A stretch of DNA of 64,000 nucleotides from Patescibacteria group bacterium (GTDB taxonomy: Bacteria > Patescibacteriota > Patescibacteriia > UBA2591 > JAQUPP01). Location: NCBI GenBank assembly GCA_041649955.1, contig JBAZMD010000001.1:68079-132078 (forward strand), in the 5' to 3' direction. Position numbers and translations under genes: made by a program. Of this stretch, positions 3,074 through 62,896 are shown piece after piece (the stretch's first letter is position 1; the number at the start of each line of letters is the position of its first letter). The notes below the pieces were generated by a model. It saw nothing but the letters and a program-made list of their open reading frames with translations. It was not told the origin of the DNA and made no database searches.

Positions 3074-3099
3074 AATGATTAAAAAAAATTATACATTTA

Positions 3100-3270
3100 T
3101 AGCGAAATTAGCTCGAACGAAGTCGCGGAAAAGCCTTAGAAAATTAAGGAGTTTTATTGAAAAATTCATCTGTTTGACGACCTCTTCGGGAGGAGTTATG
3201 AATTTTTCAAAATAAAACGAGTATAATTTTCAAGGTTTTGGAGCGCTGGAGTGAAAGCGAAATTCGCGGC
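3100..3270 (+). repeat. intergenic repeat family B, copy 1 (~170 bp)
   Basis: ~90% identical to 38612-38782; contains CCTCttcgGGAGG hairpin and SD-like gggaggag + ATG mini-ORF (MNFSK*). Confidence 0.6.
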
Positions 3271-10986: not shown

Positions 10987-13900
10987 TTATTGCAAAACAC
11001 TGCCGCCTATTTCACTAGTCCATGGATCATTTTTTGTTTTCTCAATAATCGGACCATAAACAGAATTAAAACATTTAAAAGCATCTGAATTATAGCCGAA
11101 TAATTTTTGCTGGCATTTAGTCGTCCAGCCACATAAATAGTGAGTTTCACAAGTATTTCTATCCATACCACCGCAATTTGCCTGCCATTTTGAAGAATCT
11201 GTTTCAAAATTCAGATATAAACGATAATCGTCTTCACTTATGGACACATACTGATAGACAGATGAGCCAACCGGACATTCATATTTACTTGTACTTTGAT
11301 TATAACAGGTTCCGCCGCATTGGCTAGTATCGCTGCAACCGGCGCAATAACCGCTTGTCGGGTTTGAAAATTGATTAGTCGGATCATTCGGCATACTGGA
11401 AATAAATTGCCCTTGAGGATTTTTCCAAGAAGGCCATTTGGAAACGGTCATTCCTTTTATAAAACTGCCTGATTCAAGTTTCGGATAATAACCATTAGTT
11501 GATTTATAATCTGTCAGTTTTTGGTTTATTGTTTTTAAATCATAAAGACGGAATAAATCTCGCTGAATTTTTTGCTGTTCATCAGTAGTTTTATTTGTGT
11601 TAAATTGCCAATTATTAACCAATTGATTAAAAATATCAATTGTCTCAGATTTAGCGCTATCAGAATACGAGATAAGATAAATTAAACCCTCAATTTTTCC
11701 GTCATCTTTAACATTTGTTGCCCCCACATAAACCGTTCTCCCCTCTTTTACCGCTTGATAACCATTAACAATAAACGATGTCGGTGAACCGGGGTTTGGC
11801 ACATTTTTCTTATACCATTCAAAAGGAGTAAGATAATCTGGATTTTTCAAAACCTTAAGACCGATCACGTCATTGTTAGCATTATTGGTAAAAAGAAATT
11901 CTTTAACTACATTTGATTTCGTAGTATCGGTTGCAATAAGAGATGGTAAGGATGGAAAATTTTGATATTCAGTCGGTTGCGCTCCTTTTTCCAATTGAAT
12001 ATTAGTCATATGGATTACATCTTCTTTTGTGGAAGCAGTCCATAATATCCCAACCTTAATTGCGGTATCATCAGGTCCGGTGGTAAAAGTATTGGAAATT
12101 TTAGCCAAAGCGCCAGTAGAAATCGCGTTTCCGGGCCAAACTAAATTATAATATGAAGAAGCAATCTTACTTTGAACATAAATGTATGCCAAAGACGTCC
12201 CTGTTCTATTTACTAACATGGATAGAGTATACTGCGTATTTGGAGAAACCTTAATCCAATTTGTTGATATTACTCCGGGAGTGCTTTTGGATTGCTTATT
12301 CGTGACTTTTAAAACATTATAATTAGATTGTTTAACAGTTGAAATGTCTACGCTTTGATTTTTACTCCAACCATTTGTGCCATCAAACATAGCACCGTTA
12401 AAAACTAAATTTTTCTCTAAATTTCCACGGCAATATTGCAATCTAAAATGAGTTTCTGAATCTGTAAATCCCCCTTGTATCCACGGAAATTCACAAAGAA
12501 AAACTTTGGCTTGTGCCATGGCTGAAAAGCTTTTACCAATATCTGATTTGGAAGTATCGGCTGTAATCTTAGCTGTAACTTTAATCTGCGAATCACCGTT
12601 TTGATTTTGGGCCGTGGCCGTTTGCGATGAATTAGCGCTGATTGGAACTAAAACCACGTTGGGTTTTGAAGAATCCCAAGACCAAGTCCAATTATAATCA
12701 GAAACGCCGTGAATCTCGGCTCCTTTATTATCAAGAGCTTTTGTTGAAAATTTTATTGTTGAATCTTTCTTATAAAACTCCACTGATGCTGGAGAAATAA
12801 TTTTTGGTTTTCCCGGATCTGTATTTACAGGATTAACTTTTTCATCCACTTCTTCGGCGGTTATTTCCACTTTGCTTAATTTGCAAATATCCGCACCAGT
12901 GGTAAATGTCCAAGAATTATTTTCCGCCATCTCAATGCCATATTTGCTTTTTACGATATTTTCTTTACCGGCAATTTCTTCTTTACCGGAAATTTCTACT
13001 TGATAAGTGCAAGCGCCGCTGGCATCTAATAAGCCTAAACCGGAATTTAAATAAACAATGGTTTGTTTTGTGGTATTATTATCAACCGCGGAAATATCCG
13101 CTTTTAAATCATAAATAACTGTTTTTCCCGCTTCAGCTTTTTTCAGAAAAATATTTTTTAAACTATTAAAAAATCTGACAAAAATATTATTTTTCTCCAA
13201 ACTGGCTGTAGCAGGACAATATTTATACAATTTAATTGTATCTGAATTAAGCGTGGATTTGTCCATTAATTGGTCAAAAGTGGCGTAAATTACGGTATTG
13301 CGGCAAACATTACCATTAGGATAACTATTCACTACTGTCGGCTGAGTAGCGACGACTAGATGGGAACTGTCGGAAATCGGTTGTTCACCTTTTGAAGTGG
13401 TAATTGTCGTGCTCACTGTAATATCTGTTTCACCTAAATTTTTACCTTTAACAGTCGCACTCTCGTTTGGCGTACCGACAAATTCAGCGATGTTCGGCGG
13501 ATCAGCGTCACCGTCGTCCCATGACCAAGAATATTTGCTTGATTCCAAATAATTACAATTTGAAGTATAAATTTGAGGAGTGTAAACTTTGGTTTCATTT
13601 TGTAAAATTTGGTTTGTACCCGCGGAATCAAGACAAATTTTATTCAAAGGACAATCATCATTATTCGCGATAAACATCCAAGTATAATCATCTCCTTGAA
13701 CGCCATTTTTGTCTCCATCCAGTTCCAATCCGAATTTATCTTTTATGCCGTTTGATCCGCTTTTTAAAATTATGCGGTAAATTTTATTTTTTTCCAAAGA
13801 AGCAGCAGGTTTGAAATAAAAGCCATTTTTTTCAATCGTAAAAGTGCCGAGAGCTATATTACTTGTCTCATTGTCCGGACATCCAGAATTATTAAAATCA

Positions 13901-16900
13901 CTAGTGCCGCATTTTTGAATTATTATATTTTTATTGGCAGCAGTATCAGTATTATTGGTGGTATCAATCACTACTTCCCGATTAAATCGAGCCCTGATTT
14001 GCGCTTGAGTGCAAGCGTCAGTAGATTGACTGGATGGCGAAGGTGATTGATCTCCCAATTTGCATTCACTGCAACCAGATTCTTCAGATACTTGCGGCGG
14101 TCCGCCCGGAGAAACTGTCAATAAAGCGCAAGTGCGCGGCTCTGTATAAGTACATACATTATCGCCCGTCGAAGCCATAATTAAAGATTGACCAAAATCT
14201 TTGGGTTTAGCAATTGTAGATAAACCGCTTGATGGTGAAATTGTGGCAATATTTGTTTTTGCGGAAGTCCAATTAAAACTATCCACGCAAATCTGGCGGC
14301 CATTTGAATCTAAAGCTGAAGCACCAAATGTCGGTGTTTGATTTAATCCATTAACTGTTAAATCAGTCGGAATAACTTTTATTGTTGTGATACGACATGT
14401 TCCATCTCCGGTAGTAAAATCCCAAGCAGTATCGTTCATAGAAACTCCCATTTTACTTATAGCTCCGCTTCCATATATTCCTCCCTTGACCCATATTTTA
14501 TAAGTAGAATTTGGATTTAGTTGACAGCCGGAAGGATAAAAATCAGTAGTTGTTTCTTTCTTAATATTATCATCAACGCTGGTGATTCTGCCCTTAACTT
14601 GATGAGGAGCTAAAATATCTTCTTCGGTTAAAGCTTTATTATAAATACGAACTTCGTCAATAACGCCTCTAAAATTAGAGTAATAGCATGATCCAAATTT
14701 TGGATCTGGACAGAGAGAATCTGCGTAAGATTGCCGGCCGATTACCAAATTGCCGGCATTGACTAAAGATTTTTCTCCAAATGTTTTTAGTTGAATACCG
14801 TCTAATTTTCCATTAACATAAATTTTAAGATTTTCTCCGTCATAAGTTGCTGTAATGCGATAAAAAACATCTTCTGATAACCATGTTGAACCGCGTACAT
14901 TAGTAAGATCAGGATGTATTCCAGTTCCCACTACGAAACCCGGCTGCCATTGACCGGTGTTTGGGCCTTTTCTATATAAATCCAATACATAGTTATTTCT
15001 TGCCGTCATACCCTCATCCCCTTTGGCTAAAATAACCAGTCTGCCCTTGTCAGGATCAGTAGAAGTGTCTTTTTTAATTTTTATAAAAACATCTAATGTT
15101 AATTTTTGCAAATCTAAAGAAGAACTATCAGGAATAGTTATATAATCACCATCGTCGCCTAGAGCACCATCAAATTCTAAAGCTTTTCCAAATTTTCCAT
15201 TAACCCAAGCTGCTCCGGAAATTGTTCCGTCATTTAACCCTTTCGCATCTTCAACGATTAATCCTGCTCCTTTGTTAAAATGCCAAAGCGCTACCATTCC
15301 TTCTTCAAAATTAGTTTCATAACCCGGATCAACATCAGAAGACAATAATTTGATATTATCATTTAAAGAATTATGATCCATTAAATCATCGAAGGTCATT
15401 GAAACTGACGCATTTTTACAAACATTAATTTCTCCATCAGCGGGTGATTTGCTTGCATTTATTATAATTGGTTGAGGATAACAGCATTTATTCGGATCTA
15501 AGATACCGCAACCGGCGCCGGTACCGCATTGAGCATCATTTTTGCAACCGCAACAGAGACCGCGAGGATTATCCTCTGGACCCTTACAATTACCTTGATT
15601 GGCTAAACAAGTTAAACCGACAGCGCAAGAATTCTGTTGTTTAGGATTGCAGCAACAACGACAAGTGTCAGCACCGCTTAAACATTTATAAGGCGCTGAA
15701 CAACTGCCTGAATTATTCGGACAAGATACATCTTGGCATTTATCTCCGGGTTTTGGCGCTCTATGTAAAACTTCAAAAGGCAAACTATTGCTTGTCCCGC
15801 TGGAATTTTTTACCACCACATTACCCTTTTGAGCGTCAGCCGGCACAAAGACTTCTATAATTTGCGTATCAGACCAATTTGCATCTAAAAAATCAGCAAC
15901 TACTTGATTATAAAAAATTATTTTGCTGCCGTCATTTTTTGTACCGAATCTTAAACCATTAAAACTGACTTTTGTTTCGCTTGGATCGCCTTTTGGATAA
16001 CCGCTGGAAGGATTAATTGACAAAAGACACGGACCGGATGATTCACTATTATCATTAACCAAAAATTTATCCCAACTCACAGTTTCTGATTTGCTGGCAT
16101 CTCCATCATAAGTAATCCCCACTTTAACGCCCAATGAATCCGAAATATCAGTTGCCGGATCGCCAAAAACCGCAGGAATAACCGTGGTAATAAAATCCGG
16201 ACCGGATGATTCTACGATTGCATTTATTGGCCCATCTTCTCCATTTGGTCGGGACTCAGCAGGCGGAATAACCGGATATTTATCATCAAATTGAAATTTA
16301 GTTATAGTCGCCGGACGATTAGTGGTGCCAGTAAAACAGCGGCCAAAAACAGTTACGCAACTTTTTCGTGAACCGGAATCGGGCGTTACTTTATAAATTA
16401 CCGGCGAACAAGCGCATTTGGTCAAATCAGTGGTTGTAAAATCCCAATCTTTGCCGAGTTTATTTTGATCAACATCCATTATTAAATCAGTAGTTGCGCT
16501 GATATAATAAGAAGTGCCGACAGTCAAATTATTATTTAATTTAATTTCAAAAACCTTAAATTGAGTGGAAATATTTTCAATATCAGCGTCAATAACTTTA
16601 ATTTTTCCAATCGTATTTTTGCCATCTTCGGTCGTGACGGATGCTTCAATTTCTTTCGGTTTAATAGAGCCTTGGAAAACAATATTTTTTCCGATTTTAC
16701 CCTGAATCGTTACCGTATTATCGTACATACTGGTGGCGAAGCTGACGCCAATCGGTTCGTCCGGACAAACATTTTTATCCTTTGGCCAATAATCGCTGAT
16801 CCCCGGAACAATATCATTTGTTTCAAATTTCCAAGATTGCGGCGCAGCCATTGGATTACCGCATAAATCTTTAACATTGGCCACGGTGATTTTATACCAA

Positions 16901-18165
16901 GTAAACGGATCAAGTAAATTAGGATTGCTTAAAGAAACAAAAAATCCTTGATATTTATCTTTAACAATTAATATTCCATTAATTGCCGTGCCGGATTCAG
17001 CATCTCGAGAAGCTAATTTTTCTATTGTAAAACTTGTGGAAATTGGATGTCCGTCAGCATCAGCCACTGTATCAAAATCTATACTTTCGTTAAAATTCAA
17101 ATCAATAATCGGCGCTCGAGAAACCCATTGATTTGGCTTTGCCGAATCAATAGTCGGATAAGTTTTATTCAAATAAGGCGCTTCTGTGTCTACGATATTA
17201 TTAGTTTCAAAATCCCAAATAACAGTATCAGCGTTTTTTGAGCAATGATATTTTGGATTAAATCCGTTACTGCAGCCATATAAAGGAAGACTGGGAATAT
17301 AAGTATCTTTAATTGATTTTGGGACAATAACATTATATTTAGTATCCGAGTCCCATATAGTTTTAGGAGTAAATAAAACCGAACTGCCTGAAATTTTCCA
17401 AGTTCCTTCAATAGCTTTTTTATCCGCATCAGTGGCTTTAACAACTTTCAAAGTTTCGTCGGTTATTACCGCGTTTACCTCATTAGAATTTAAATTATGA
17501 TTAAAAACTGGTTTTATCTTGCTGCAGCGATAAACTTTCGCATTTGGATTTTCAACTATATTCTCTGTACTGAAAGCAGCTTCGCCGCTCTTTAAAAGTA
17601 AAGACATTGAATCGGAAGAAAAATAACAAGTATCTTCTGCTGGAATAGTACATTCGCAATTCTCATCAAATTTCATGCCTATACCATTGCCGCAGCAAGA
17701 ATCCGGCTTGCAGCACTTGCTTCCTACGCAATAAGTTGAAGGTTCGGTCACCTCCGAAAGTTTACTCATAATAAAGCTGGCAATGGCGTAAGCTAAAACA
17801 ATAATTAAAATGCCGATAATGCCGGCAATCATCAATTTTTTGGCTCCGGCAATTTTAGTTTCATCTCCACCCGAAGTCATCCATCTAAAACCGCCCATAA
17901 TTATAATAACCGCCGCCGCCAATCCGAGCACGCCTAAAACAATTCTCATTATATTACCCATGGCAGAAGGGAGGTCAGTGTTTCCATAAGTCGCATGAGT
18001 GCGAAAATTTTCCAAACCGTTATTCATTTCTTGCGCATTGGTTAAAGCCGGATTTAAAACAAAAAATAAAAATCCGGATGCCATCAATAAACATAAAAAA
18101 CCTAAAAATATATTTTTTTTAAATTGTTTTTTTTCCGCCATCCGGCGAATTATTTCAATTTTCAT
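10987..18165 (-). CDS. giant (2392 aa) cell-surface protein with N-terminal T4SS/VirB2-like pilin double-TM domain, LamG/ConA-like lectin domain, Ig-like and Cys-rich modules
   Basis: N-terminus has signal/TM + GNIMRIVLGVLGLAAAVIIIMGGFRWMTSGGDETKIAGAKKLMIAGIIGILIIVLAYAIASFI, resembling the CPR T4SS-pilin fold; uninterrupted 7.2-kb ORF. Confidence 0.7.
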   Translation of the reverse strand: MKIEIIRRMAEKKQFKKNIFLGFLCLLMASGFLFFVLNPALTNAQEMNNGLENFRTHATYGNTDLPSAMGNIMRIVLGVLGLAAAVIIIMGGFRWMTSGGDETKIAGAKKLMIAGIIGILIIVLAYAIASFIMSKLSEVTEPSTYCVGSKCCKPDSCCGNGIGMKFDENCECTIPAEDTCYFSSDSMSLLLKSGEAAFSTENIVENPNAKVYRCSKIKPVFNHNLNSNEVNAVITDETLKVVKATDADKKAIEGTWKISGSSVLFTPKTIWDSDTKYNVIVPKSIKDTYIPSLPLYGCSNGFNPKYHCSKNADTVIWDFETNNIVDTEAPYLNKTYPTIDSAKPNQWVSRAPIIDLNFNESIDFDTVADADGHPISTSFTIEKLASRDAESGTAINGILIVKDKYQGFFVSLSNPNLLDPFTWYKITVANVKDLCGNPMAAPQSWKFETNDIVPGISDYWPKDKNVCPDEPIGVSFATSMYDNTVTIQGKIGKNIVFQGSIKPKEIEASVTTEDGKNTIGKIKVIDADIENISTQFKVFEIKLNNNLTVGTSYYISATTDLIMDVDQNKLGKDWDFTTTDLTKCACSPVIYKVTPDSGSRKSCVTVFGRCFTGTTNRPATITKFQFDDKYPVIPPAESRPNGEDGPINAIVESSGPDFITTVIPAVFGDPATDISDSLGVKVGITYDGDASKSETVSWDKFLVNDNSESSGPCLLSINPSSGYPKGDPSETKVSFNGLRFGTKNDGSKIIFYNQVVADFLDANWSDTQIIEVFVPADAQKGNVVVKNSSGTSNSLPFEVLHRAPKPGDKCQDVSCPNNSGSCSAPYKCLSGADTCRCCCNPKQQNSCAVGLTCLANQGNCKGPEDNPRGLCCGCKNDAQCGTGAGCGILDPNKCCYPQPIIINASKSPADGEINVCKNASVSMTFDDLMDHNSLNDNIKLLSSDVDPGYETNFEEGMVALWHFNKGAGLIVEDAKGLNDGTISGAAWVNGKFGKALEFDGALGDDGDYITIPDSSSLDLQKLTLDVFIKIKKDTSTDPDKGRLVILAKGDEGMTARNNYVLDLYRKGPNTGQWQPGFVVGTGIHPDLTNVRGSTWLSEDVFYRITATYDGENLKIYVNGKLDGIQLKTFGEKSLVNAGNLVIGRQSYADSLCPDPKFGSCYYSNFRGVIDEVRIYNKALTEEDILAPHQVKGRITSVDDNIKKETTTDFYPSGCQLNPNSTYKIWVKGGIYGSGAISKMGVSMNDTAWDFTTGDGTCRITTIKVIPTDLTVNGLNQTPTFGASALDSNGRQICVDSFNWTSAKTNIATISPSSGLSTIAKPKDFGQSLIMASTGDNVCTYTEPRTCALLTVSPGGPPQVSEESGCSECKLGDQSPSPSSQSTDACTQAQIRARFNREVVIDTTNNTDTAANKNIIIQKCGTSDFNNSGCPDNETSNIALGTFTIEKNGFYFKPAASLEKNKIYRIILKSGSNGIKDKFGLELDGDKNGVQGDDYTWMFIANNDDCPLNKICLDSAGTNQILQNETKVYTPQIYTSNCNYLESSKYSWSWDDGDADPPNIAEFVGTPNESATVKGKNLGETDITVSTTITTSKGEQPISDSSHLVVATQPTVVNSYPNGNVCRNTVIYATFDQLMDKSTLNSDTIKLYKYCPATASLEKNNIFVRFFNSLKNIFLKKAEAGKTVIYDLKADISAVDNNTTKQTIVYLNSGLGLLDASGACTYQVEISGKEEIAGKENIVKSKYGIEMAENNSWTFTTGADICKLSKVEITAEEVDEKVNPVNTDPGKPKIISPASVEFYKKDSTIKFSTKALDNKGAEIHGVSDYNWTWSWDSSKPNVVLVPISANSSQTATAQNQNGDSQIKVTAKITADTSKSDIGKSFSAMAQAKVFLCEFPWIQGGFTDSETHFRLQYCRGNLEKNLVFNGAMFDGTNGWSKNQSVDISTVKQSNYNVLKVTNKQSKSTPGVISTNWIKVSPNTQYTLSMLVNRTGTSLAYIYVQSKIASSYYNLVWPGNAISTGALAKISNTFTTGPDDTAIKVGILWTASTKEDVIHMTNIQLEKGAQPTEYQNFPSLPSLIATDTTKSNVVKEFLFTNNANNDVIGLKVLKNPDYLTPFEWYKKNVPNPGSPTSFIVNGYQAVKEGRTVYVGATNVKDDGKIEGLIYLISYSDSAKSETIDIFNQLVNNWQFNTNKTTDEQQKIQRDLFRLYDLKTINQKLTDYKSTNGYYPKLESGSFIKGMTVSKWPSWKNPQGQFISSMPNDPTNQFSNPTSGYCAGCSDTSQCGGTCYNQSTSKYECPVGSSVYQYVSISEDDYRLYLNFETDSSKWQANCGGMDRNTCETHYLCGWTTKCQQKLFGYNSDAFKCFNSVYGPIIEKTKNDPWTSEIGGSVLQ

Positions 18166-18187: not shown

Positions 18188-18643
18188 TTAGATATTATTT
18201 AATTGTTCTTTGACTATTTGGCTGACTTGATTGCCGTCCGCTTTGCCCTTGGTTTGTTTCGCCACCAAGCCCATTACTTTGCCGAAATCCGAAGGACCGT
18301 TGGCATTGATTTCTTTAATAACATTTAAAACTATTTCTTTCACTTGATCGCCCGATAATTGTTCGGGCATATATTTAAAAAGTATTTCCAATTCTTTTTT
18401 TTCTTTGGCGGCTAATTCCGGCCGATTCCCCTTTTCATATAATTCTATCGCCTCTTTGCGTTTTTTTATTTCTCCGCCGACAATATCAACAGCCAGTTCA
18501 TCGGTTAATTCTTGTTTCTTGGGTCTTAATTCAATAGCTTTATACGCCAAGGCGGATTTTAACATACGCAAAACAGCCTTCGTGTCTTCCTCTCCTTCAC
18601 GCAAGGCTTGTTTAAAATCTTTTTCAATACGTTCGAGCAACAT
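18188..18643 (-). CDS. yqeY: GatB/YqeY domain protein
   Basis: 151 aa; typical YqeY sequence, downstream of rpsU as in Firmicutes. Confidence 0.8.
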   Translation of the reverse strand: MLLERIEKDFKQALREGEEDTKAVLRMLKSALAYKAIELRPKKQELTDELAVDIVGGEIKKRKEAIELYEKGNRPELAAKEKKELEILFKYMPEQLSGDQVKEIVLNVIKEINANGPSDFGKVMGLVAKQTKGKADGNQVSQIVKEQLNNI

Positions 18644-18649
18644 ATTTAC

Positions 18650-18812
18650 CTCATTGGGGCGAGGATTATGTCGCTAAGAAAAGTGTCTTCCGCCAAAGGG
18701 CGGATAAACTCCGGGCGAGTAGTTCGCCAGCTGGGGCGGAGAGCCCGAGAGCCAAGCGACAATTTTCCCGCTGGGAAAATTGATCGTGTCTTTTCGTGCG
18801 ACTAATCCGAAC
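18650..18812 (-). ncRNA. candidate structured RNA / GC-rich structured spacer between rpsU and yqeY
   Basis: ~160 nt of markedly higher GC than flanks, several perfect hairpins (ttttcccGCTgggaaaa, ccgccAAAGggcgg), no ORF. Confidence 0.3.
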
Positions 18813-18815
18813 CTT

Positions 18816-19034
18816 TTACTTAATTTTACCAAGTTTTCTTAAATATTCCATTTTCTCGCGAGACGATTTTCTGCACAAAGCGCTTGCTCTGCGAAGAAGC
18901 TTGCTTTGCGGTTTAACATAAAATTGGCCTTTTTTGGCAAGGTCAAGCACGCCGCTTCTTTTAATGCGTTCGCTGAATCTTCTTAAAAAAATATTTAAGG
19001 ATTCGTTTGGTTTTCTTTTAAGTTCAATACTCAT
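18816..19034 (-). CDS. rpsU: 30S ribosomal protein S21
   Basis: 72 aa, basic, canonical S21 sequence. Confidence 0.85.
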   Translation of the reverse strand: MSIELKRKPNESLNIFLRRFSERIKRSGVLDLAKKGQFYVKPQSKLLRRASALCRKSSREKMEYLRKLGKIK

Positions 19035-19256
19035 ACTTTATATTATAATATATAATAATTAAAAAGCAAGCCCCACCACATGGAAATTATTGTTTTTCTG
19101 TAAAATTACGATTTAATAAGTATAAATTAAAAAAAATATTTTAGTTAGATATTTGAAATTATTAAGCATATAAAAAAACAAGAGAACAGTAATTTTAATA
19201 ATTTCCTTGTGGTGGGGCAAGCCTATTCTAACACATATTTTTATAGACGGGAAGAA

Positions 19257-25343: not shown

Positions 25344-25378
25344 ATAATAGCAAAAATTTTGATTTTTGTCAATCCCCT
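25344..25378 (-). promoter_or_regulatory. stereotyped promoter GGGGATTGACAAAAATCAAAATTTTTGCTATTAT (read on minus)
   Basis: TTGACA-17-TGcTATTAT; one of >12 near-identical promoters. Confidence 0.55.
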
Positions 25379-28539: not shown

Positions 28540-28574
28540 AATAATAGCATATTTTTTGATTTTTGTCAACCCCT
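28540..28574 (-). promoter_or_regulatory. stereotyped promoter GGGGTTGACAAAAATCAAAAAATATGCTATTAT
   Basis: perfect -35, 17-nt A-rich spacer, TGn-extended -10. Confidence 0.6.
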
Positions 28575-30125: not shown

Positions 30126-30668
30126 CTAATTTTTAAGCGAAAATCTCCATTTTTTGTTTGCCCAATAAGGTCCGGCATAATCAATCCCAACTCTCTTAGT
30201 CGCAAAAATGCGGGATTTATTTATTTTTTCTCCTCTGTCTTCCAACCAAAATCTTTTGCTTTCAATAACATCTTCGCCGTAAAATGATTTGTCCAATTTT
30301 AAATATCTACAAAGTTTTCCCGGCCCGGAAGTTAAATTTTTTTCTTTAGAAGCTAGAGCGCGAATTAAAACGCATTCCGGCTTGCCTGATTTAGAAGTAG
30401 TGATATTCAATTGCCAATACATGCCATAAACCAAATAAATATAAATATGCCCGCCCTTGAAATATTCAGCAATATTTCGAGAAGTCATTCGATTGTTATA
30501 AGCATGGCAAGCTCTGTCTTTTGGGCCGACATAAGCTTCTGTTTCAATAATTTTTCCTTCTAATTTTTTATTGCCGATTTTTCTGACAATATATTTCCCC
30601 AATAATTCCTTGGCTACTTTTAAAGTCGGCCGAGTATAAAAATTTCTGGTTAATTTTTTTATTTTCAT
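30126..30668 (-). CDS. mpg: DNA-3-methyladenine glycosylase (Mpg/AAG family)
   Basis: 180 aa; ETEAYVGPKDRACHAY and GHIYIYLVYGMYW are Mpg signatures. Confidence 0.8.
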   Translation of the reverse strand: MKIKKLTRNFYTRPTLKVAKELLGKYIVRKIGNKKLEGKIIETEAYVGPKDRACHAYNNRMTSRNIAEYFKGGHIYIYLVYGMYWQLNITTSKSGKPECVLIRALASKEKNLTSGPGKLCRYLKLDKSFYGEDVIESKRFWLEDRGEKINKSRIFATKRVGIDYAGPYWANKKWRFSLKN

Positions 30669-30823
30669 CCCTCACCCTTCGACGATAATATTCGCCCTCG
30701 TATTTTCCAATTGCCTTTTATAAAATAAAAATAAATTTTCTTGAATCCAGATTAAACTGAATAAATTAGTAAAGACAGGCTCGTATTTGGAAAATAACAT
30801 CGTCGAAGGGTGAGGGATAAACT

Positions 30824-30881: not shown

Positions 30882-33800
30882 TTATTTCGCGGCTAAGAAT
30901 TTCGGCGTGACTAAATTCTCGGCAAAATCTGAAATTGTTCCGCCGTCAGAATAAGTTTCAGCCTTAGAAATAGTCATTACCGGCACTTTGCTGTAACCAT
31001 TGTTGGTTAAAGCTTTGGCGGATAATTTATATTTCTTGCCGTTCTGAATCAGATAAATCTGAGAAGTTCCCGTGTATTTAACCAATGTTCCATTAGGATG
31101 TTTAGTCGTGGAATCAATCGTATCGCCTAAAGGATAATTGAATTTGGATAATAAATCATCAGGCACCCAAGTCACCAATTTCCATTTCGGATCATTGAAA
31201 AGTTTCTGATAAATCGCTGAAGATTTAACCGGTCTCAATTTGCCGTCAGAAACCATGAATACTGCCGAAGCGCTTAAACCGTGAAGCGATGTAGTCTTGC
31301 CTCTGAATAATGAACCGTCGCGGAATGTCATTGCTACGCCTTCAGAATATTTCGCAAATTCTTCAGAAGTAACCTTCTTGACTGTTGAGAAATTGGATGG
31401 ATAACCCCAAGAGAGATAAACATTAAGATGCGGGAAAACGTGCGCCTTGCCGTCCAAAATCATATAAACCGCGCCTGGTTGAGCAGTACAAGTCGGACAA
31501 ATAACCAAATCTCTATTTTTGAGATTATAAGTTATAACTTCTGCTGTTTCTTCTGATTCAGAAATAATTATTGCTGAAATTATTGAAGAGAGATTAAAAG
31601 TCTTATCTCTGAAACGGATATAAACCACTTTTTCTCCCTTACCAACTGGTAGTAACCAAGAACGAGTAGCTTGATACGGTTCCCAATTAATACCGACAAA
31701 ATCAATCGTATTACTAATCATCATTTCCGCGGCATCAGTAGCAGTAATGTTTAAAGTAACATTTCTGGAAGTAGTTTTCGCGGCACCACTATTTATCTTT
31801 AAGGATAAATCTTTTGGACCAAGATTACCTGCATTGCCACCACCTCCTGAACTGCCACTCATTGGGGTCGAATCTCCGCCAGCAGTAACAAACTTTCCTC
31901 CGGTAATACCGCCAGGTGTAAAATGGTTTGTGGTAACAATTATAACATTATTAGTTGCATCGCGAACCACTGATTTATAATTTTCCCAAGTGTTTGTGGT
32001 GTCATCAAAATATTTTGGCGTAATATCAGCTTCAGTATATCCATAATCTGTAATTAAATCCGGATCATAAGGGAATGTAATCTTTACGTCATTATCAAAT
32101 TGAGTGATTTCTTGACCAGTAGAGTCCTTAGCCGTGAAATCATAGTTAACGCCAAGCGGTTTATCTTTAGCATCCGGTTTCACTGATACCGTAGTTTGAT
32201 TTTCATCACCAACAGTCGGCGTAATAGTTACGGTAACTGTGCCACTGCTGGCTAAAGCTCCGGCTGGAATTTCAAGCGTCAGACCATTTGTAAGTTCAAT
32301 AGTTTTACTGTCTGAAGCGTTGAAAGTCGTAGTTTTAGCTTCAGGAACGGCAAGACCTGTGGTAACAAGAGTTAAATTCTTAGTTTGAGCGCCTGCTACG
32401 GTTATAACTTCAGTCGCAGCGCTTTCATAAAGGACTCCATCAATTTTGGCCGTGGCCTTAACATACCATGTTTCACCGGACTTAACTTTTAAAGTATAAG
32501 TTCCGTCAGAAGCCATTGTACCGGTTCCCTTATCCTCAGACCAAGCTTGTATCATTGCTTGTTTTCTAACGCTGTCTAAAGTAACCTCACCGGTGATAGT
32601 GGCATCTGATAAACTGAATTGAAGATCCTTACCTGTTACATTGGAATCGCCAACCGTCACACTGAGTAATGGCGGGTTAATCAAATCTCTCGCATCCCAA
32701 GGAGGAATACCGGCACCAATTTTGAAAGTACCACTGGTAACATTTAAAGTATAAGTGCCGTCATTTCCGGTAAAAGTACCAACACCCAAACCGCCCGGAC
32801 CCTTAAAATCATTTTTGGTCGTTTCATCACCAAAGTCAGCATAGACCCAAACTCCACTCATACCAACATCATCCGGATCCGTGATTGTACCGCTGATTGT
32901 TTTATCAAGTTTTTTAAGTTGGAAATTACGAGTAGTTGTACTATCGGCAATAACGGTTGATTTTACGTCTTCGGCTACTATTTTGTATTTATCATTATCA
33001 TCTCCAAAATTCATCATCGGATCAATAAAAGCGTCAACGTACCAACTGCCTGCTGAAACTTTTAATGAATATTTATCATTAACACTGCTTGGAGCAAATT
33101 CTGTTTGCGACCAGCCGCCATTTTCTTTATCACCATTGATAAAAGCGCGAACTCCTGTCACAACCGTATCTGTTCCTGCAGTATAAGAACTATCGCTATT
33201 AGTATCAAGATAAAATTTACCTTCAATCGTAGCATTATTCGGTGCCACCACTAAATCAATTTCTTTACATCCGGTTGTTTCGTCAGTACAAGTATCGCTT
33301 TCACCAACAGTAACAGTTTTAGTTACGGTTAAAGTATATTTAGAACCCGGAGGCGTATTTAAACCTAATTCATAACTGCCGAGCGGAACTTTAATTTCAG
33401 TATAACCATTAGCTAATCCTCCGCCGGCAAAACCACCTTTATCCATACCTGCTCCCATTGCTCCGCCGCCACCGCTGCCGCCACCTACAGCTGTTCCACC
33501 ACTACCTGCATCGCCGCTTCCACCTGCCATCATTTTCGGATCACCGAAATCAATAAAATCATTTACTGTCGGATCCGTATCTTTAACCCAAACTCCACCC
33601 CAAATATCGGAAACACGATTACCGTCAGCATCCACTACATTTACTTTAAGCAGACCATCGGCTACCTTTAATAAAAAGTCATTATTATCAGAAGTTTGAT
33701 TGGCGGTTATTGTTACTTGTTGCGGACCACCTTGATAAATATATTGAGTTGACATTGGCATAATCATTACGCCCCAATTTCCTTCACTGACAGTTAAATC

Positions 33801-36800
33801 AAATCTGCCGGTATTAGAATCTGTTTGTGTATTAGCCCAGCCCGGTCCATTCATTTGCCAAGCATTAACCATCACACTGCCAATTGCATTACCGGCCGAA
33901 TCTGTAACCGTTCCTTTAATATGAGCATTCTTTGCTGTTAAAATAAGTGTGCCTGCGTCAGTTGTTTGTTCAGAAATAGCTTTGATTTTAACCGGAGTGG
34001 AACCGCCATAACTCTGACCTTGTTCGCCCCAGTTTGGATTAGCCACCAAATCATAAGTACCAGCTGGAACTTTAAAAGTAAAACGTCCATCAGAATCAGT
34101 ATTGGCACCATTGCCACCACCCATCATACCGCCGCTATTGGCCATTACCCAAGAATTGGCAATTGCCGTAGCACCGGTTGGATCTTTAACTAAACCTGTA
34201 ATAATAGCATTGGCCACTTGAACTTCAAAATCCAAACCAGCATCAAGTATAGTAGCGCCTCCCGGACAATTTCCCACTGTACCGCGGCATTCCGTGCTGC
34301 CATCTTCGGTAAAAGTAGTTCTCTTTGGAGATTCATTATAAACCCAATCAGGTTGACCCATGCTCCAATCAGGATTTACACTTAACCACCAGCCGCCGCC
34401 GGCAAGTTTTAAAGTATATTCACCACTTGAATTTGTTAATGTTTCAAAATGTCCACCTCCCATATCGCGATTAGCTTGAACGCGGGCATTAGCGACTAAT
34501 GCACCGCTGCCCTTTTTAGTCACTGTACCGGTTAAAGTTTTTGTTGGGACAGTTAAGGTAATTAAATTATTTGCCTGAGCCACATTGGCCACTTTAACTG
34601 TGCCTACGTCATCAGCAACATCAACGGTTAATCCGCTTGGTTGAATCCAAGCTTTTTCACCGCCCCAAGGCAAATTGATTTCCATGGATAATCCGGTGGC
34701 ATTGGTTAAACCGCCGATTCGGAAATAACCTTGATCATCAGTTGAAGCACCACCCTGATTTTGCCACATTTGATCATGAATCATAATCCAAGACCATTGG
34801 ACAGGTTGATCATCCGCAGTTCCGGCAACTTCATCCGCACCCGGATTCATTACTCTTCCGGTAACTTGCGGCGTACCAAGTATGAGTTTACCGCCGGTTC
34901 CATAAGTCACACCTAAATCTAAATTAGAAGTTCCGGCAGCTACGGCAGAGGAAATTGTAATATTAGAATATTTTTTTGTTGAATAATTACGATAAACAGC
35001 TTGTTCTTCAGGCGTCCCCCAACGTGGAGCTTCAATTTCTAAAGCATAAGTTCCTGCTGTCACACCACCAAAAGAGAATTGACCGTTCTGATTAGTGTTT
35101 GTGCCATACCAACCACCCGTAGTACCGCCTTGCATTGGTCCTTCAATATGGAAATTAATCCAAGCATTAGCCACAGTTGTAGTAGTATTTGGAATAACAA
35201 CCGTACCGCTAATATTCGGAGTGCTTAAAATTATATTTTTGGTTCTGCTTGATTGAGAACTGGTAACTGTAACATTCTGAACAAGTTTTCTCCCGCAAGT
35301 AATATTTCCGCAACCATTCCAAGGATTTGCTTCCACTTCATAAGTACCAATAGTCACACCGCCAATGGCATAATTTCCATTAGCATCTGTTTGTGACCAT
35401 TGAGAACCGGACATTGAACCTTGTGATCGCATATTAATACCAACATTAGTTGCACCGATATCAGGATAACCCACCGGATCATCGCATTCAGCTTGAGTCA
35501 CAGTTGAATTGTCGTCATGTTTCGGTTTGCAAACACGACCGGTTAAACCATTAACTGTCGGGTCGCTTAACAAAACAAGTAAACTATTATTAGCAATTGT
35601 CAAAGCAGTACCCGGATCTGATACCTCGGTAATAGTAGTTCCGGCAACACTTACTACCATGCCTTGCGGCGCAGCATAAAGACTGCCGTATTGAGTATTG
35701 ACATTAAAATTCCAGCTGCCCGTAGGAACATTTAAACTAAATGTTCCATCACTTTGAGCACTGGCGCCATAACAACTACCGGCTGATTGATAAGGACAAA
35801 AATCAATCCAAATTCCGCTTTGTCCGGTTGTACCGGTTGGATCTTTAACTACACCAGTAACATTGGGTGCTGATAAAGTAAATGCGTCATCATCAACGCT
35901 ATCAAGAGTGTCAGCTTGATCTTTTAAATCATTAGAAGTAGTTGAAGTAATGGAAACTGAAAAATTACCGCTGGCACAAGCACTGCCGCTCGCCGGTTGA
36001 ATTCGAAGATTATAAGTACCAAGTGCCACGCCACCAAGAGAAAAATTACCACTATCATCAGTATTTACACCATACCAAGAACCATCTTTATCCATATTTA
36101 TCCAAGCGACGGTTGTTACACCACCGCATTTTACTTTTCCAAAAACATTTGGCAAAGCAAAAGTTTTATTTCCCAAATCAGTAATTTGTCCATCCGTAAC
36201 ATCAATGGCAAATTCAGCAGTTCTTGTTCTTGGATAACTTCTAAAGTCGCCGCTGTATGGCGGCTCAATTTCTAAAATATAATGAGTACTGTCTGTCACT
36301 CCGCCAAAATAAACTATGCCATCAGCATCGGTCTGTGCCCATTGATTGTAAGACCAATCCATAGTATGAAGACCAATATTGGCATAAGGCACTGGCAAAC
36401 CAGGCTGAGGATTACTTGCCGTAGCAGTATCACCTAAAGTACCAGGAGCCTTAATCGTTACTTTAACATTTTGAGCGGATAAATTGATATTAATGCCGGT
36501 TGCAGTTTGACCTGAAGTTAAACATTGAGAAGTTCTAACGCTTTTATATTGTAAAACTCTGTCTTGATAATCTTTGGGTCTGGCTTCAATTTCATAACAT
36601 TGGCTGCTGGTATCATTTGGAACATAAAGTTTCCATGTTCCGTTTGGACCGGTTGTTGTTCTTTGCTCATAGTCCCAAGTATAAGGACGAGCAACCACTT
36701 CTACGCCTTCCAATAATGTTGCGCCACTGGGAGATTTAACCGTACCGGAAAGAGTGGCTGTTCTAAAAGCTTGGGTGGCTAGTGTTGCCACTGAACCCAC

Positions 36801-37808
36801 CGTAGCTGTTTGACTGCTTAACTTGGAGGGCGCCACATAAGTCGCGCCGGCCGGGGTGCTGAATTGTATATTATAACTTCCGGTCGCACTTAATAATAAA
36901 GCATATTTGCCATTGGAATGAGTTTCCCCAAGCACGACATTTCCCATTTGTCCGGGCGTAAAAGATTCAACCTGGACTCTATCTATGTCACCGGCCGTAT
37001 CTGAGGTAAGACTACCTATAAATATGCCTTGCGTGCTATTCCAAATTATAAATGGTCGTGAATCTGAAACACGACGCGTATTCAAATCACTAATTATTAT
37101 ATCTACGCGGCCGTTTAATCCGGTTGGAATTGTAGCCGTAAGTTCAGTAGCTCCGGCAGTTGCAGGCGTGGATGTTACACTTCCTCCGTTAAAATTCCAA
37201 TATATTTCTGTTGCGTCAGTTGAGGTGGAATAATTAGAACCGGTAATCGTTACTGTATCGCCGACATTGCCGCACGGATAACCATTGCAAAGATCAGACT
37301 CAGTAGTATTGGTTATATAATTGATAATCGGATCAATAGAAGCGCTAACAGTATTGTTGGCAGTAAAATCTTCTATAGTTTGAGTTCCTGCTAAATTTTT
37401 AATATCTCCGGCTGTCATCTGCCAAGTTTGTCCTTCGCTTAATTTTAAATTTTTTAAACCGTAAATTCTTAAACGATAATCATTCTCGCCCGCCTGAATA
37501 CTTTGAGTTGACATATCATAAGGACTGAATCGACTTAATGTTCTGTCTGTTAATCCCGCTCCTGTTTCAAAAATAAAATTACGCAAATCTGTCGCGTAAT
37601 TGGTTGCACTTCCTGCTTCGGTTGTTGAAGATGGGGTTGTTTCTGCGGAAAATTGTCCGTTGAATGTAATTTCCGCTGAAGTTGTCGAGACCGTAATATC
37701 GGTCACGGCTATTGGTGCTAATGCACTCACTGATGTGGACAGCCCCATTGACCACAACATGGTCGTGGCTGTCACAAAAATTGAAAAAAACTTTTTTGTG
37801 TTGTTCAT
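30882..37808 (-). CDS. giant (2308 aa) secreted surface protein with many Ig-like/CarboxypepD_reg-like beta-sandwich repeats, Gly-rich segment and triple C-terminal ~50-aa module
   Basis: N-terminal signal peptide; SGTVKSPSGATLLEGVEVVA-type repeats; C-terminal GxLxKxxxSxxVYxIxNGxK modules shared with 8760-10340. Confidence 0.7.
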   Translation of the reverse strand: MNNTKKFFSIFVTATTMLWSMGLSTSVSALAPIAVTDITVSTTSAEITFNGQFSAETTPSSTTEAGSATNYATDLRNFIFETGAGLTDRTLSRFSPYDMSTQSIQAGENDYRLRIYGLKNLKLSEGQTWQMTAGDIKNLAGTQTIEDFTANNTVSASIDPIINYITNTTESDLCNGYPCGNVGDTVTITGSNYSTSTDATEIYWNFNGGSVTSTPATAGATELTATIPTGLNGRVDIIISDLNTRRVSDSRPFIIWNSTQGIFIGSLTSDTAGDIDRVQVESFTPGQMGNVVLGETHSNGKYALLLSATGSYNIQFSTPAGATYVAPSKLSSQTATVGSVATLATQAFRTATLSGTVKSPSGATLLEGVEVVARPYTWDYEQRTTTGPNGTWKLYVPNDTSSQCYEIEARPKDYQDRVLQYKSVRTSQCLTSGQTATGININLSAQNVKVTIKAPGTLGDTATASNPQPGLPVPYANIGLHTMDWSYNQWAQTDADGIVYFGGVTDSTHYILEIEPPYSGDFRSYPRTRTAEFAIDVTDGQITDLGNKTFALPNVFGKVKCGGVTTVAWINMDKDGSWYGVNTDDSGNFSLGGVALGTYNLRIQPASGSACASGNFSVSITSTTSNDLKDQADTLDSVDDDAFTLSAPNVTGVVKDPTGTTGQSGIWIDFCPYQSAGSCYGASAQSDGTFSLNVPTGSWNFNVNTQYGSLYAAPQGMVVSVAGTTITEVSDPGTALTIANNSLLVLLSDPTVNGLTGRVCKPKHDDNSTVTQAECDDPVGYPDIGATNVGINMRSQGSMSGSQWSQTDANGNYAIGGVTIGTYEVEANPWNGCGNITCGRKLVQNVTVTSSQSSRTKNIILSTPNISGTVVIPNTTTTVANAWINFHIEGPMQGGTTGGWYGTNTNQNGQFSFGGVTAGTYALEIEAPRWGTPEEQAVYRNYSTKKYSNITISSAVAAGTSNLDLGVTYGTGGKLILGTPQVTGRVMNPGADEVAGTADDQPVQWSWIMIHDQMWQNQGGASTDDQGYFRIGGLTNATGLSMEINLPWGGEKAWIQPSGLTVDVADDVGTVKVANVAQANNLITLTVPTKTLTGTVTKKGSGALVANARVQANRDMGGGHFETLTNSSGEYTLKLAGGGWWLSVNPDWSMGQPDWVYNESPKRTTFTEDGSTECRGTVGNCPGGATILDAGLDFEVQVANAIITGLVKDPTGATAIANSWVMANSGGMMGGGNGANTDSDGRFTFKVPAGTYDLVANPNWGEQGQSYGGSTPVKIKAISEQTTDAGTLILTAKNAHIKGTVTDSAGNAIGSVMVNAWQMNGPGWANTQTDSNTGRFDLTVSEGNWGVMIMPMSTQYIYQGGPQQVTITANQTSDNNDFLLKVADGLLKVNVVDADGNRVSDIWGGVWVKDTDPTVNDFIDFGDPKMMAGGSGDAGSGGTAVGGGSGGGGAMGAGMDKGGFAGGGLANGYTEIKVPLGSYELGLNTPPGSKYTLTVTKTVTVGESDTCTDETTGCKEIDLVVAPNNATIEGKFYLDTNSDSSYTAGTDTVVTGVRAFINGDKENGGWSQTEFAPSSVNDKYSLKVSAGSWYVDAFIDPMMNFGDDNDKYKIVAEDVKSTVIADSTTTRNFQLKKLDKTISGTITDPDDVGMSGVWVYADFGDETTKNDFKGPGGLGVGTFTGNDGTYTLNVTSGTFKIGAGIPPWDARDLINPPLLSVTVGDSNVTGKDLQFSLSDATITGEVTLDSVRKQAMIQAWSEDKGTGTMASDGTYTLKVKSGETWYVKATAKIDGVLYESAATEVITVAGAQTKNLTLVTTGLAVPEAKTTTFNASDSKTIELTNGLTLEIPAGALASSGTVTVTITPTVGDENQTTVSVKPDAKDKPLGVNYDFTAKDSTGQEITQFDNDVKITFPYDPDLITDYGYTEADITPKYFDDTTNTWENYKSVVRDATNNVIIVTTNHFTPGGITGGKFVTAGGDSTPMSGSSGGGGNAGNLGPKDLSLKINSGAAKTTSRNVTLNITATDAAEMMISNTIDFVGINWEPYQATRSWLLPVGKGEKVVYIRFRDKTFNLSSIISAIIISESEETAEVITYNLKNRDLVICPTCTAQPGAVYMILDGKAHVFPHLNVYLSWGYPSNFSTVKKVTSEEFAKYSEGVAMTFRDGSLFRGKTTSLHGLSASAVFMVSDGKLRPVKSSAIYQKLFNDPKWKLVTWVPDDLLSKFNYPLGDTIDSTTKHPNGTLVKYTGTSQIYLIQNGKKYKLSAKALTNNGYSKVPVMTISKAETYSDGGTISDFAENLVTPKFLAAK

Positions 37809-38049: not shown

Positions 38050-38202
38050 AAACAAAGCAATTTTTGCTATAACCTTGAGAATCCCGCTTCAAATCTCTGA
38101 ATAAAATTGGTTTAAAAACCAAAGTAAGCCGAAGGCGTTTCCGCGGGATAAATTAAATTATTTTTAAAAAACTTTTTTTGGATTTGAGGCGTGGGTTACC
38201 GT
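38050..38202 (+). repeat. intergenic repeat family A, copy 2
   Basis: Aligns with 1231-1385 and 40508-40657. Confidence 0.55.
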
Positions 38203-38224
38203 AAATTTTAGTCCCCTTTTATTA

Positions 38225-38590: not shown

Positions 38591-38611
38591 TCCTTCATCC
38601 CTCCACGCTTG

Positions 38612-38782
38612 TGGCGAAATTCGCCTGAACGATGTCGCGGAAAAACCTTAGAAAATTAAGGAGTTTTATTGAAAAACTCATCTGTTTGACGACCTATTTG
38701 GGAGGAGTTATGAATTTTTCAGAATAAAACGAATATAATTTTCAAGGATTTAGAGCGTTGAGTGAAGGTGAATTTTGCAACA
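38612..38782 (+). repeat. intergenic repeat family B, copy 2
   Basis: ~90% identity to 3100-3270. Confidence 0.6.
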
Positions 38783-40507: not shown

Positions 40508-40657
40508 GGAGAAATAAATTTTCGCTACAATTTATGAGCACCCTGCTTCAAACCTCTAAACAAAATCAGTTCAAAGATAGCGTAAGCCGAAGGCGTTTCC
40601 ATGAATTAAATTAATTATTTTTTCACGAACCTTCTTCGGGTTTGGGGCGTGGGTCGC
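40508..40657 (+). repeat. intergenic repeat family A, copy 3
   Basis: Between two MTase genes; conserved gaaataaattttcgctac and ttcgggtttggggcgtgggt. Confidence 0.55.
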
Positions 40658-40669
40658 CATAAAATAATT

Positions 40670-48086: not shown

Positions 48087-48127
48087 GTTTTTATCTTACA
48101 CTAAAAATCAACGACAGTCAATTTTTT

Positions 48128-48183
48128 AAAAATACAAAGAGCGAGTCATCCCCAAAGGGGGCCCCTTGGGCTTGACTCGCTCT
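48128..48183 (-). terminator. nested GC-rich hairpin terminator (agagcgagtca...tgactcgctct around ccccaaagggggccccttgggc)
   Basis: 11-bp outer stem + inner palindrome, T-run on minus strand after RRM gene stop. Confidence 0.55.
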
Positions 48184-48210
48184 TTGCTAAACGAATTTAC
48201 GTTCTGTGGA

Positions 48211-48561
48211 CTAATTGTCCCGTCCGTATCCGCCTCTGCTTCCACCGCCGTATCCACCGCGGCTTCCGCCACCACCACCAAATCCTCTTCCACCACCGGT
48301 TCTTGGTCTTTCTTCTCTTGGTCTAGCTTCGCTGACCTTAAGATTGCGGCCGTCGATTGGTTGGTTGTTGAACATTTCAATGGCTTTTGCGGCTTCGTCT
48401 TCTGTGGACATTTCCACAAAACCGAATCCTTTGCTTCTACCGGAATATTTATCGGTAATAATACTCGCTGAGACAACTGTTCCGGCCTGGCCGAAAGTTT
48501 CTTTCAATTGATCGTCAGTGAGATTATATGATAAATTTCCGATGTAAAGTTTCTTTTCCAT
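48211..48561 (-). CDS. glycine-rich RNA-binding protein (RRM domain)
   Basis: 116 aa; RNP2 LYIGNL, RNP1 KGFGFVEM, C-terminal RGG/GGYGGG tail. Confidence 0.85.
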   Translation of the reverse strand: MEKKLYIGNLSYNLTDDQLKETFGQAGTVVSASIITDKYSGRSKGFGFVEMSTEDEAAKAIEMFNNQPIDGRNLKVSEARPREERPRTGGGRGFGGGGGSRGGYGGGSRGGYGRDN

Positions 48562-54695: not shown

Positions 54696-55029
54696 TTAAG
54701 ACCTCCCGTCTTATTAGTTTTGCGAATCCTTTCTTTTTAGCCCGGATTCGCTTCGGCTATTTACAAAGAACTATTGTGTTATATATAATAGCATATTTTT
54801 GAATTTTGTCAACCCCCTCACATGTGGAAAACCATAAAGGGCATACTGTCTTTCGTTTTTTTATATATACACTGATTTTATCTTATCTATATGCTTATTT
54901 TTAACTTTATGCCTATTAAACTGTAATTTCCAAGAAAGACAATGGTTTTCCTTGTGAGGGGGCCAAGAGCAAATTTGGGGATAAATAAAAGGGGCGATTT
55001 CTCGCCCCCCGTTTAAATACTTACTATTC

Positions 55030-56969: not shown

Positions 56970-57078
56970 TCATCCCACCTCCTTTTAAAAGATGCTTTTA
57001 AATCCTTAATTATTAGATTTAATTTGTTACTATTATTTAAGCAAATTTTTTGATTTTTGTCAACCCCTATTACAAAAA

Positions 57079-58384: not shown

Positions 58385-58475
58385 CCCCTTTTTTTAATTA
58401 TTTAAAATATATCATAATTTTTACTTTTTGTCAAGACATTTTTGAATAATAAAAAAAGATTTAAAGAATCTAGTT

Positions 58476-62758: not shown

Positions 62759-62896
62759 CTCTCCCCCTTTATTGCTTTTTAAAAAACTATTGTTAGTTTT
62801 TATATTATATTTAAATAATAGCACATTTTTCACTTTTTGTCAAGTGTAATTATCTCTAATTTTAAAAAATAACCGCTTAAATAAACGGTTATTTTT

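Follow-up and report, generated by a model that had tools for sequence, protein, structure and literature searches.

A structured, patchily distributed element in the rpsU-yqeY operon of Patescibacteria, possibly an intercistronic RNA module

The spacer between rpsU, which encodes ribosomal protein S21, and yqeY in a Patescibacteria genome contains an element that is a member of a previously undescribed, patchy, position-variable structured family in Patescibacteria. Comparison of its sequence with that of a homologue in a second lineage indicates that the element is real and that selection acts on the structure of at least one hairpin and on the sequence of the basal helix. By analogy with known intercistronic hairpins, our best guess, to which we would give a probability of about 0.4, is that it acts in cis as an intercistronic RNA module for processing or stability. 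In what follows, the window is the entire 64-kb stretch of DNA that was analysed.

A first-pass annotation of the window had drawn attention to a GC-rich island of about 160 nt between the S21 and YqeY genes, and both its coordinates and its composition were borne out: the GC fraction is 0.546 at positions 18650-18812, versus 0.342 in the flanking 3.7 kb and 0.352 in the whole window, and the spacer taken as a whole (172 nt) has ~54% GC between flanks of 34%. The island also lies on the transcribed strand, as annotated, both genes being on the minus strand, and a promoter-like sequence (TTGCTT-16-TATAAT) is found directly upstream of rpsU. The features of the locus are as follows, in the order of transcription of rpsU and yqeY (L050 is the locus carrying the homologous copy described below):

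18816-19034, minus strand: rpsU (S21), the upstream cistron, Pfam PF01165 (Ribosomal_S21)
18644-18815, minus strand: the rpsU-yqeY spacer, 172 nt, which contains the element, as defined by the ORF map, sequence and composition
18811-18813, minus strand: 5′ strand of P0 (GGU), 2 nt after the rpsU stop codon, with the GCC of the conserved tail as its partner
18663-18808, minus strand: core of the element, 146 nt, from the 5′ strand to the 3′ strand of P1, as defined by the minimum-energy fold and the region of covariance models R1 and R2
18791-18805, minus strand: conserved 5′ block UUAGUCGCACGAAAA, the 5′ strands of P1 and P2, identical in L050
18760-18782, minus strand: hairpin H1, CAAUUUUCCC-AGC-GGGAAAAUUG, the same as the ttttcccGCTgggaaaa hairpin of the first-pass annotation
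18685-18753, minus strand: variable, GC-rich apical hairpins H2 (18729-18753), H3 (18714-18728) and H4 (18685-18709)
18666-18682, minus strand: conserved 3′ block UUUUCUUAGCGACAUAA, the 3′ strands of P2 and P1, identical in L050
18657-18664, minus strand: conserved tail CCUCGCCC, in which CC closes P1, UC is an internal loop and GCC is a strand of P0
18649-18652, minus strand: Shine-Dalgarno (SD) sequence of yqeY (GAGG), 5 nt upstream of the ATG
18188-18643, minus strand: yqeY, the downstream cistron, Pfam PF09424 (YqeY)
10987-18165: giant surface-protein gene (2392 aa), 22 nt after yqeY

Only four 120-nt stretches in the 64 kb exceed 55% GC, and the spacer island is the sole non-coding one. 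The other three were considered as sister elements and rejected, since all of them lie inside coding genes, two within a giant gene and one in the glycine-rich tail of an RRM protein. The RRM protein is small, of the RNA-binding type and RGG-rich in its tail; it is encoded on the minus strand at 48211-48561 and accounts for the GC-rich island in the region 48087-48561, where a very stable hairpin (48132-48188), probably its terminator, follows its gene. There are two giant genes in the window (10987-18165, 2392 aa; 30882-37808, 2308 aa), both coding for surface-type proteins with a T4SS_pilin-like N-terminus and Big_5 and Laminin_G_3 domains, and the first of the two is syntenic with rpsU-yqeY across lineages in which YqeY is only 61% identical.

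No known RNA family corresponds to the element. When the window copy was compared with the 4227 families of Rfam 15 (E ≤ 10, relaxed filters), only noise was obtained (11-18 bits, E 2.7-8.3), and the same was true of the L050 copy. The families without a match included 6S, SRP, tmRNA and RNase P, to none of which the first-pass annotation had been able to fit the island by eye, as well as riboswitches, ribozymes, r-protein leaders and HEARO. At the Rfam gathering threshold the whole 64-kb window yielded a tRNA-Gln alone, and ARAGORN reported neither a tRNA nor a tmRNA at the element. Integron attC, dif/Xer, parS, retron msr-msd, K-turn and hammerhead core motifs were discarded by inspection. 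Furthermore, a scan of both strands revealed no promoter-like or terminator-like sites flanking the window copy, and no U-tract follows any hairpin of the element; the suggestion that the island might be a discrete, unannotated small-RNA gene is therefore not supported.

Folding of the spacer gave -68.5 kcal/mol on the operon strand (z -5.26) and -72.4 kcal/mol on the opposite strand (z -4.59), and none of 200 shuffles folded as well. However, z values of -5 to -9 were obtained for many regions in a survey of the intergenic sequences of the window, so that it is the composition, and not the fold statistic alone, that makes the spacer distinctive. The most strongly folding intergenic region of the window (30664-30821, z ~-8.9) consists of a 29-nt inverted repeat (90% complementary) around 100 nt, in the spacer upstream of the gene for the 2308-aa protein.

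In the predicted structure, a basal helix of ~20 bp is formed successively by P0 (GGY/GCC), a UC/UC loop, P1 (11 bp with a bulged A), an AC/UUA loop and P2 (6 bp), with the UUA internal loop and the bulged A both contained in the UUUUCUUAGCGACAUAA block. The ttttcccGCTgggaaaa and ccgccAAAGggcgg hairpins noticed in the first-pass annotation are present, at 18763-18779 and 18690-18703, respectively, the latter being H4 (UCCGCC-CUUU-GGCGGA). The long-range pairing proposed alongside them holds only in part: tgtcgct (18669) and agcgaca (18755) are complementary, but the homologue conserves another closing helix, in which 18798-18808 is paired with 18663-18674. The SD sequence of yqeY, which came along with the replaced spacer (see below), has an unpaired probability of 0.92-0.97 in the predicted ensemble, which argues that the element is not a translational off-switch. 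A riboswitch or translational cis-regulator of yqeY was accordingly rejected, given the unpaired SD sequence, the absence of a terminator and the lack of the element in orthologous 5′ regions. As to the strand on which the structure would matter, the helices are nearly all Watson-Crick and the mirrored structure is equally stable on the other strand; moreover, the wobble/A-C asymmetry (counts of G-U versus A-C) favours neither strand. For function on the transcribed strand there is one hint only, and a weak one, namely that the two copies share their orientation.

The homologue was identified when all collected loci were searched with covariance model R1, whose only input was the window copy in its minimum-energy structure. 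One strong full-length match was obtained, at L050 1661-1809 (40.5 bits, E ~1e-8, model positions 1-146), and three further loci (L051, L056 and L057) bear copies identical to that of L050. The L050 lineage is distant from that of the window, with YqeY 61% identical at the protein level and rpsU and yqeY 63% and 67-69% identical, respectively, at the nucleotide level. There, the rpsU-yqeY spacer is only 4 nt long and the element is located after yqeY, ~58 nt in front of a gene for a 2316-aa protein homologous to the giant gene of the window. That is, both copies reside within a syntenic rpsU-yqeY-giant-gene operon, on the operon strand, and begin 2-3 nt beyond the upstream gene's stop codon, an association with the yqeY operon that is partly an ascertainment effect, since the sequence searched was that around yqeY only.

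The two copies are 65-73% identical overall and share exact blocks of 15, 17 and 8 nt (UUAGUCGCACGAAAA, UUUUCUUAGCGACAUAA and CCUCGCCC) in the same order and with the same spacing. Across the two loci, the 15- and 17-nt blocks rank among the longest exact matches; the blocks are mutually complementary and form the basal helix. Differences within the helix preserve pairing: the window has GGU/GCC in P0 where L050 has GGC/GCC, and the last pair of P2 switches from G-C to C-G between the copies. H1 aligns position for position with a 23-nt hairpin of L050 (CUCCGACCCC-AGC-GAGGUCGGAG), in which 6 of the 10 pairs are changed on both sides while the loop context CCCAGCG is kept. In total, nine pairs are doubly changed (six of them in H1), as against 0-2 in slid controls, and none of 500 shuffles reached the observed covariation values, these statistics representing one pairwise comparison of two lineages in an alignment fitted to the model. 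The interior behaves differently. A hairpin with a stem identical to that of H4 exists in L050, but at a different position, meaning that the interior is not alignable with confidence; in addition, a 12-nt direct repeat lies inside the L050 copy, which has alternative pairings and, when folded alone, prefers a different minimum-energy structure.

The first-pass annotation had read the island as a probable structural RNA. What stands of this reading is that the element is structured, unannotated, located on the transcribed strand, without an Rfam match and marked by compensatory changes; what does not follow is function as RNA rather than as DNA, compensatory changes being equally expected for a DNA hairpin.

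Wider searches left the family at these two lineages. The spacer had no match by blastn and nhmmer in 33 GTDB yqeY loci (L050 was not among them, and the blocks it shares with the window are short), and blastn of both copies against phage and plasmid collections returned nothing, or chance matches with E = 0.5. Scans of IMG/VR with 20-23-mers, a terminal-repeat pattern and a conserved-block pattern were also negative, and a metagenome scan with the internal 20-mer GGCGAACTACTCGCCCGGAG, which is not a conserved block, produced three chance matches in GC-rich contigs. An improved covariance model (R2) and a mismatch-tolerant block scan, applied to 263 kb of sequence, revealed no third member; a weak covariance-model match at L056 5301-5448 (13.8 bits) lacks the conserved ends and was not counted as one. 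Finally, a concatenate of pseudo-ORFs from all six frames gave no match at E ≤ 1 among 5.8 billion proteins, and on this ground the idea that a GC-rich donor had contributed a piece of one of its protein genes was rejected.

The distribution of the element among relatives is patchy. While an ENA contig is identical to the window across the locus, three or four sister lineages with YqeY 95-97% identical (rpsU ~95% and yqeY ~90% identical at the nucleotide level) lack the element and have an AT-rich rpsU-yqeY spacer of 53-58 nt instead. Presence or absence therefore differs among close relatives. The AT-rich spacer is conserved between two of the sisters and shows no similarity to that of the window, indicating wholesale replacement of the spacer and not simple insertion. 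The four lineages (window and sisters) form a star-like phylogeny, in which gain in the window lineage is more parsimonious than the alternative, loss in the common ancestor of the others. Among more distant relatives, represented by 25 GTDB loci and seven other lineages, rpsU and yqeY are arranged anywhere from overlapping to 174 nt apart, and none of these spacers was similar to that of the window by blastn or nhmmer. 

Some of the distant spacers are themselves GC-rich or hairpin-forming (L002, L014 and L047) and were examined and rejected as homologues of the element. In L014 a long hairpin of 90 nt (z -4.1) occupies the same rpsU-yqeY position, and in L047 (YqeY 62% identical) an unrelated 99-nt hairpin spacer with 55% GC (1102-1200; z -2.8) separates the two genes. 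Structured spacers may therefore arise repeatedly at this position. The AT-rich sister spacer, which is of the ancestral type, contains a promoter-like sequence (TTGTCA-16-TAAATT; L036 1452-1479) that was lost in the window lineage. Replacement of the spacer may thus have deprived yqeY and the giant gene of an internal promoter, although the sequence fits a promoter no better than would be expected by chance.

Immediately upstream of the rpsU promoter there is a second indel (19061-19227), in which a 31-nt imperfect inverted repeat (AAAAAGCAAGCCCCACCACATGGAAATTATT / AATAATTTCCTTGTGGTGGGGCAAGCCTATT) surrounds ~105 nt of AT-rich DNA. This repeat is absent from the sisters, of which L036 has an 81-nt spacer and L040 an unrelated 193-nt spacer, and a similar hairpin of the GCCCCCACACC...GGTGTGGGGG type is found upstream of rpsU in L050 (~700-750). 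Together with the replacement of the rpsU-yqeY spacer, this indel points to fast intergenic turnover in the clade.

Several other intergenic repeats were recorded in the window. Two copies of a 152-nt element that folds into a long palindrome, 90% identical (3097-3248 and 38609-38760; z ~-5), represent a candidate repeated MITE-like element or structured RNA; they contain AGTCGCGGAAAAG, which is reminiscent of AGTCGCACGAAAAG in the element described here, although the covariance models did not match them. Another repeat (GTAAGCCGAAGGCGTTTCC ... GGGTTTGGGGCGTGGGTTACCGT) has three copies that are 74-83% identical (38124-38205, 40582-40663 and 1351-1385). A further motif, TTGACAAAAATCAAAAAATATGCTATTAT, occurs on the minus strand at 25344-25377, 28541-28574, 54785-54818, 57035-57068, 58406-58439 and 62815-62848; it appears to be the strong promoter consensus of this genome (TTGACA, 17 nt, TATTAT-like, extended upstream) and could help define transcription units.

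Lacking its own promoter and terminator, the element is most likely part of the rpsU-yqeY-giant-gene polycistronic mRNA. For the intercistronic RNA module that we favour, a purely hypothetical course of events can be sketched. The basal helix, in which the sequence-conserved ends are predicted to pair, would close off the variable, GC-rich cluster of hairpins and might itself be a site for a double-strand-specific nuclease or a binding site for a protein. The compact fold just past the upstream stop codon could then shield the upstream cistron or cistrons from 3′ exonucleases, and the abundance of S21 (and YqeY) would thereby be uncoupled from that of the 7-kb downstream message. Its occurrence in two distant lineages and its absence from the closest relatives imply that the element has been gained, lost or moved within the operon; it is dispensable and patchily distributed, and since sister species do without it, any function for the host must be non-essential.

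A serious rival, which we regard as somewhat less probable, sees in the element a MITE-like or selfish DNA palindrome whose ends would be terminal inverted repeats for a transposase or recombinase. The interior would then be free to vary, insertion would be intergenic, and any effect on RNA would be a by-product, as with the Correia, ERIC and RUP elements. The imperfect inverted termini of ~20 bp (GGATTAGTCGCACGAAAAG / CTTTTCTTAGCGACATAATCC), which are conserved in both lineages around a diverged interior, favour such a reading, as do the differences in presence among close relatives and in position within the operon, a GC content far above that of the host, the strand symmetry of the structure and the existence of other intergenic palindromic repeats in the genome. 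The interior is not simply neutral, however, as the pairing of H1 has been kept through six double changes. Possible flanking 5-bp direct repeats can be found (GTAAA in the window, TAATT in L050), but as target-site duplications they need flexible boundaries, and AT-rich 5-mers are likely to recur by chance. Neither do the numbers and placement of copies fit well: there is a single copy in the 64-kb window and a single one in the 16.5-kb L056 contig, orientation and operon are shared by the two copies, and no transposase gene is nearby. Moreover, the ancestral spacer was replaced and not interrupted, leaving no clean empty site, and the element has diverged about as far as its flanking genes have, which gives no indication of recent spread.

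Compared with the intercistronic module, it is also rather improbable that the element is a stable small RNA, or an RNA partner of YqeY or S21, which would be excised via the basal stem and have a role in trans or in binding or autoregulation. The pairing of the 5′ and 3′ ends does resemble the processing stems of stable RNAs, and in the helix and internal loops the sequence is conserved and not just the pairing, suggesting recognition by a protein. However, the sisters keep S21 and YqeY while lacking the element, at least five other lineages lack it as well, conservation of the interior is poor, and neither a promoter nor a terminator belongs to the element itself. In both cases yqeY is the gene closest to it, the element being immediately upstream of yqeY in the window and immediately downstream in L050, but the loci examined were all yqeY loci, which confounds this adjacency. 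The more specific version, a new functional RNA class particular to Patescibacteria that would be freed via the basal helix and work with an RNA-binding protein of the operon, is more doubtful still. For such a role the most attractive candidate partner is YqeY, an uncharacterised, GatB-C-terminal-like putative tRNA-binding protein.

The first-pass annotation had also raised the idea of an S21 autoregulatory 3′ element, that is, a structure just downstream of rpsU to which S21 binds and thereby controls the operon. In its favour, only 2 nt separate the rpsU stop codon from the start of the window copy, and an anti-SD-like CCUC is present in the conserved 3′ block. Nevertheless, this idea did not survive the comparison with relatives and is now very unlikely: sisters with an identical or near-identical S21 protein have an unrelated spacer, and in L050 the element lies after yqeY, with just 4 nt left between rpsU and yqeY. 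Regulation of S21, besides, is known to act at the 5′ translation-initiation region and is not known to act at the 3′ end.

Least credible of all is a small protein gene on the opposite (plus) strand, an ORF of 45-46 codons (MSLRK...VFSCD*) whose frame, stop and start context (GAGG-N5-ATG) are intact in both copies: only the five N-terminal and five C-terminal residues are conserved, and these are encoded by the two mutually complementary blocks, so that the helix explains them, while the residues in between are unrelated, hydrophilic and low in complexity. At 60% GC about one-quarter of frames would be expected to stay open for 45 codons; neither a plus-strand promoter nor a homologue among the 5.8 billion proteins searched was found, and gene callers do not call the ORF. 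We take it to be a side effect of helix conservation.

In the tiny genomes of Patescibacteria (CPR), the annotation of non-coding features is poor. The element, which is conserved and branched, shows compensatory changes and matches nothing in Rfam, offers a concrete candidate for a new RNA or mobile-element family in this group, and its patchy occurrence shows how fast a spacer can be replaced wholesale between species that are ~90% identical at the nucleotide level. If the element is active as RNA, it would constitute a portable intercistronic module by which the amounts of a ribosomal protein and a giant surface protein are set relative to each other. Should it be a MITE, it would to our knowledge be among the first described in CPR, and if an RNA partner of YqeY were to prove true, it would be the first such partner and provide a functional handle for the YqeY family. 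With two lineages so far, its present significance is moderate.

Two groups of known elements invite comparison. The Correia elements of Neisseria, ERIC/IRU and RUP are, like the element, 100-160 nt long, with inverted termini that form a long helix, and they too are found between the genes of operons, are co-transcribed and differ in presence between close relatives; the Correia hairpin is a substrate of RNase III and alters mRNA stability. They differ in having tens to hundreds of copies per genome, clear target-site duplications and a single long hairpin, whereas our element was found once in each genome region sampled, has an interior of several hairpins that shows compensatory changes, and occupies the same operon in the same orientation in the two lineages.

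The second group comprises intercistronic stabiliser or processing elements, such as the REP sequences in malE-malF, the RNase III hairpin of rpsO-pnp and the E. coli rpsU-dnaG spacer of the macromolecular-synthesis operon. In polycistronic mRNAs, such elements govern how strongly a highly expressed ribosomal gene, or another upstream gene, is expressed relative to the downstream genes. By analogy, the element may be likened to them as a structure placed directly after the upstream cistron. Those elements, however, are simple hairpins or terminators with no homology in sequence or structure to the one described here, which combines a sequence-conserved basal helix with a branched apical domain. 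Unlike riboswitches and r-protein leaders, it is not conserved at an orthologous position. In its high GC content, long intergenic region, strong fold, closing stem and covarying hairpins it is like the candidate structured RNAs, Rfam motif families among them, that emerged as GC-rich islands of AT-rich genomes from intergenic-region surveys in the style of the Breaker laboratory.
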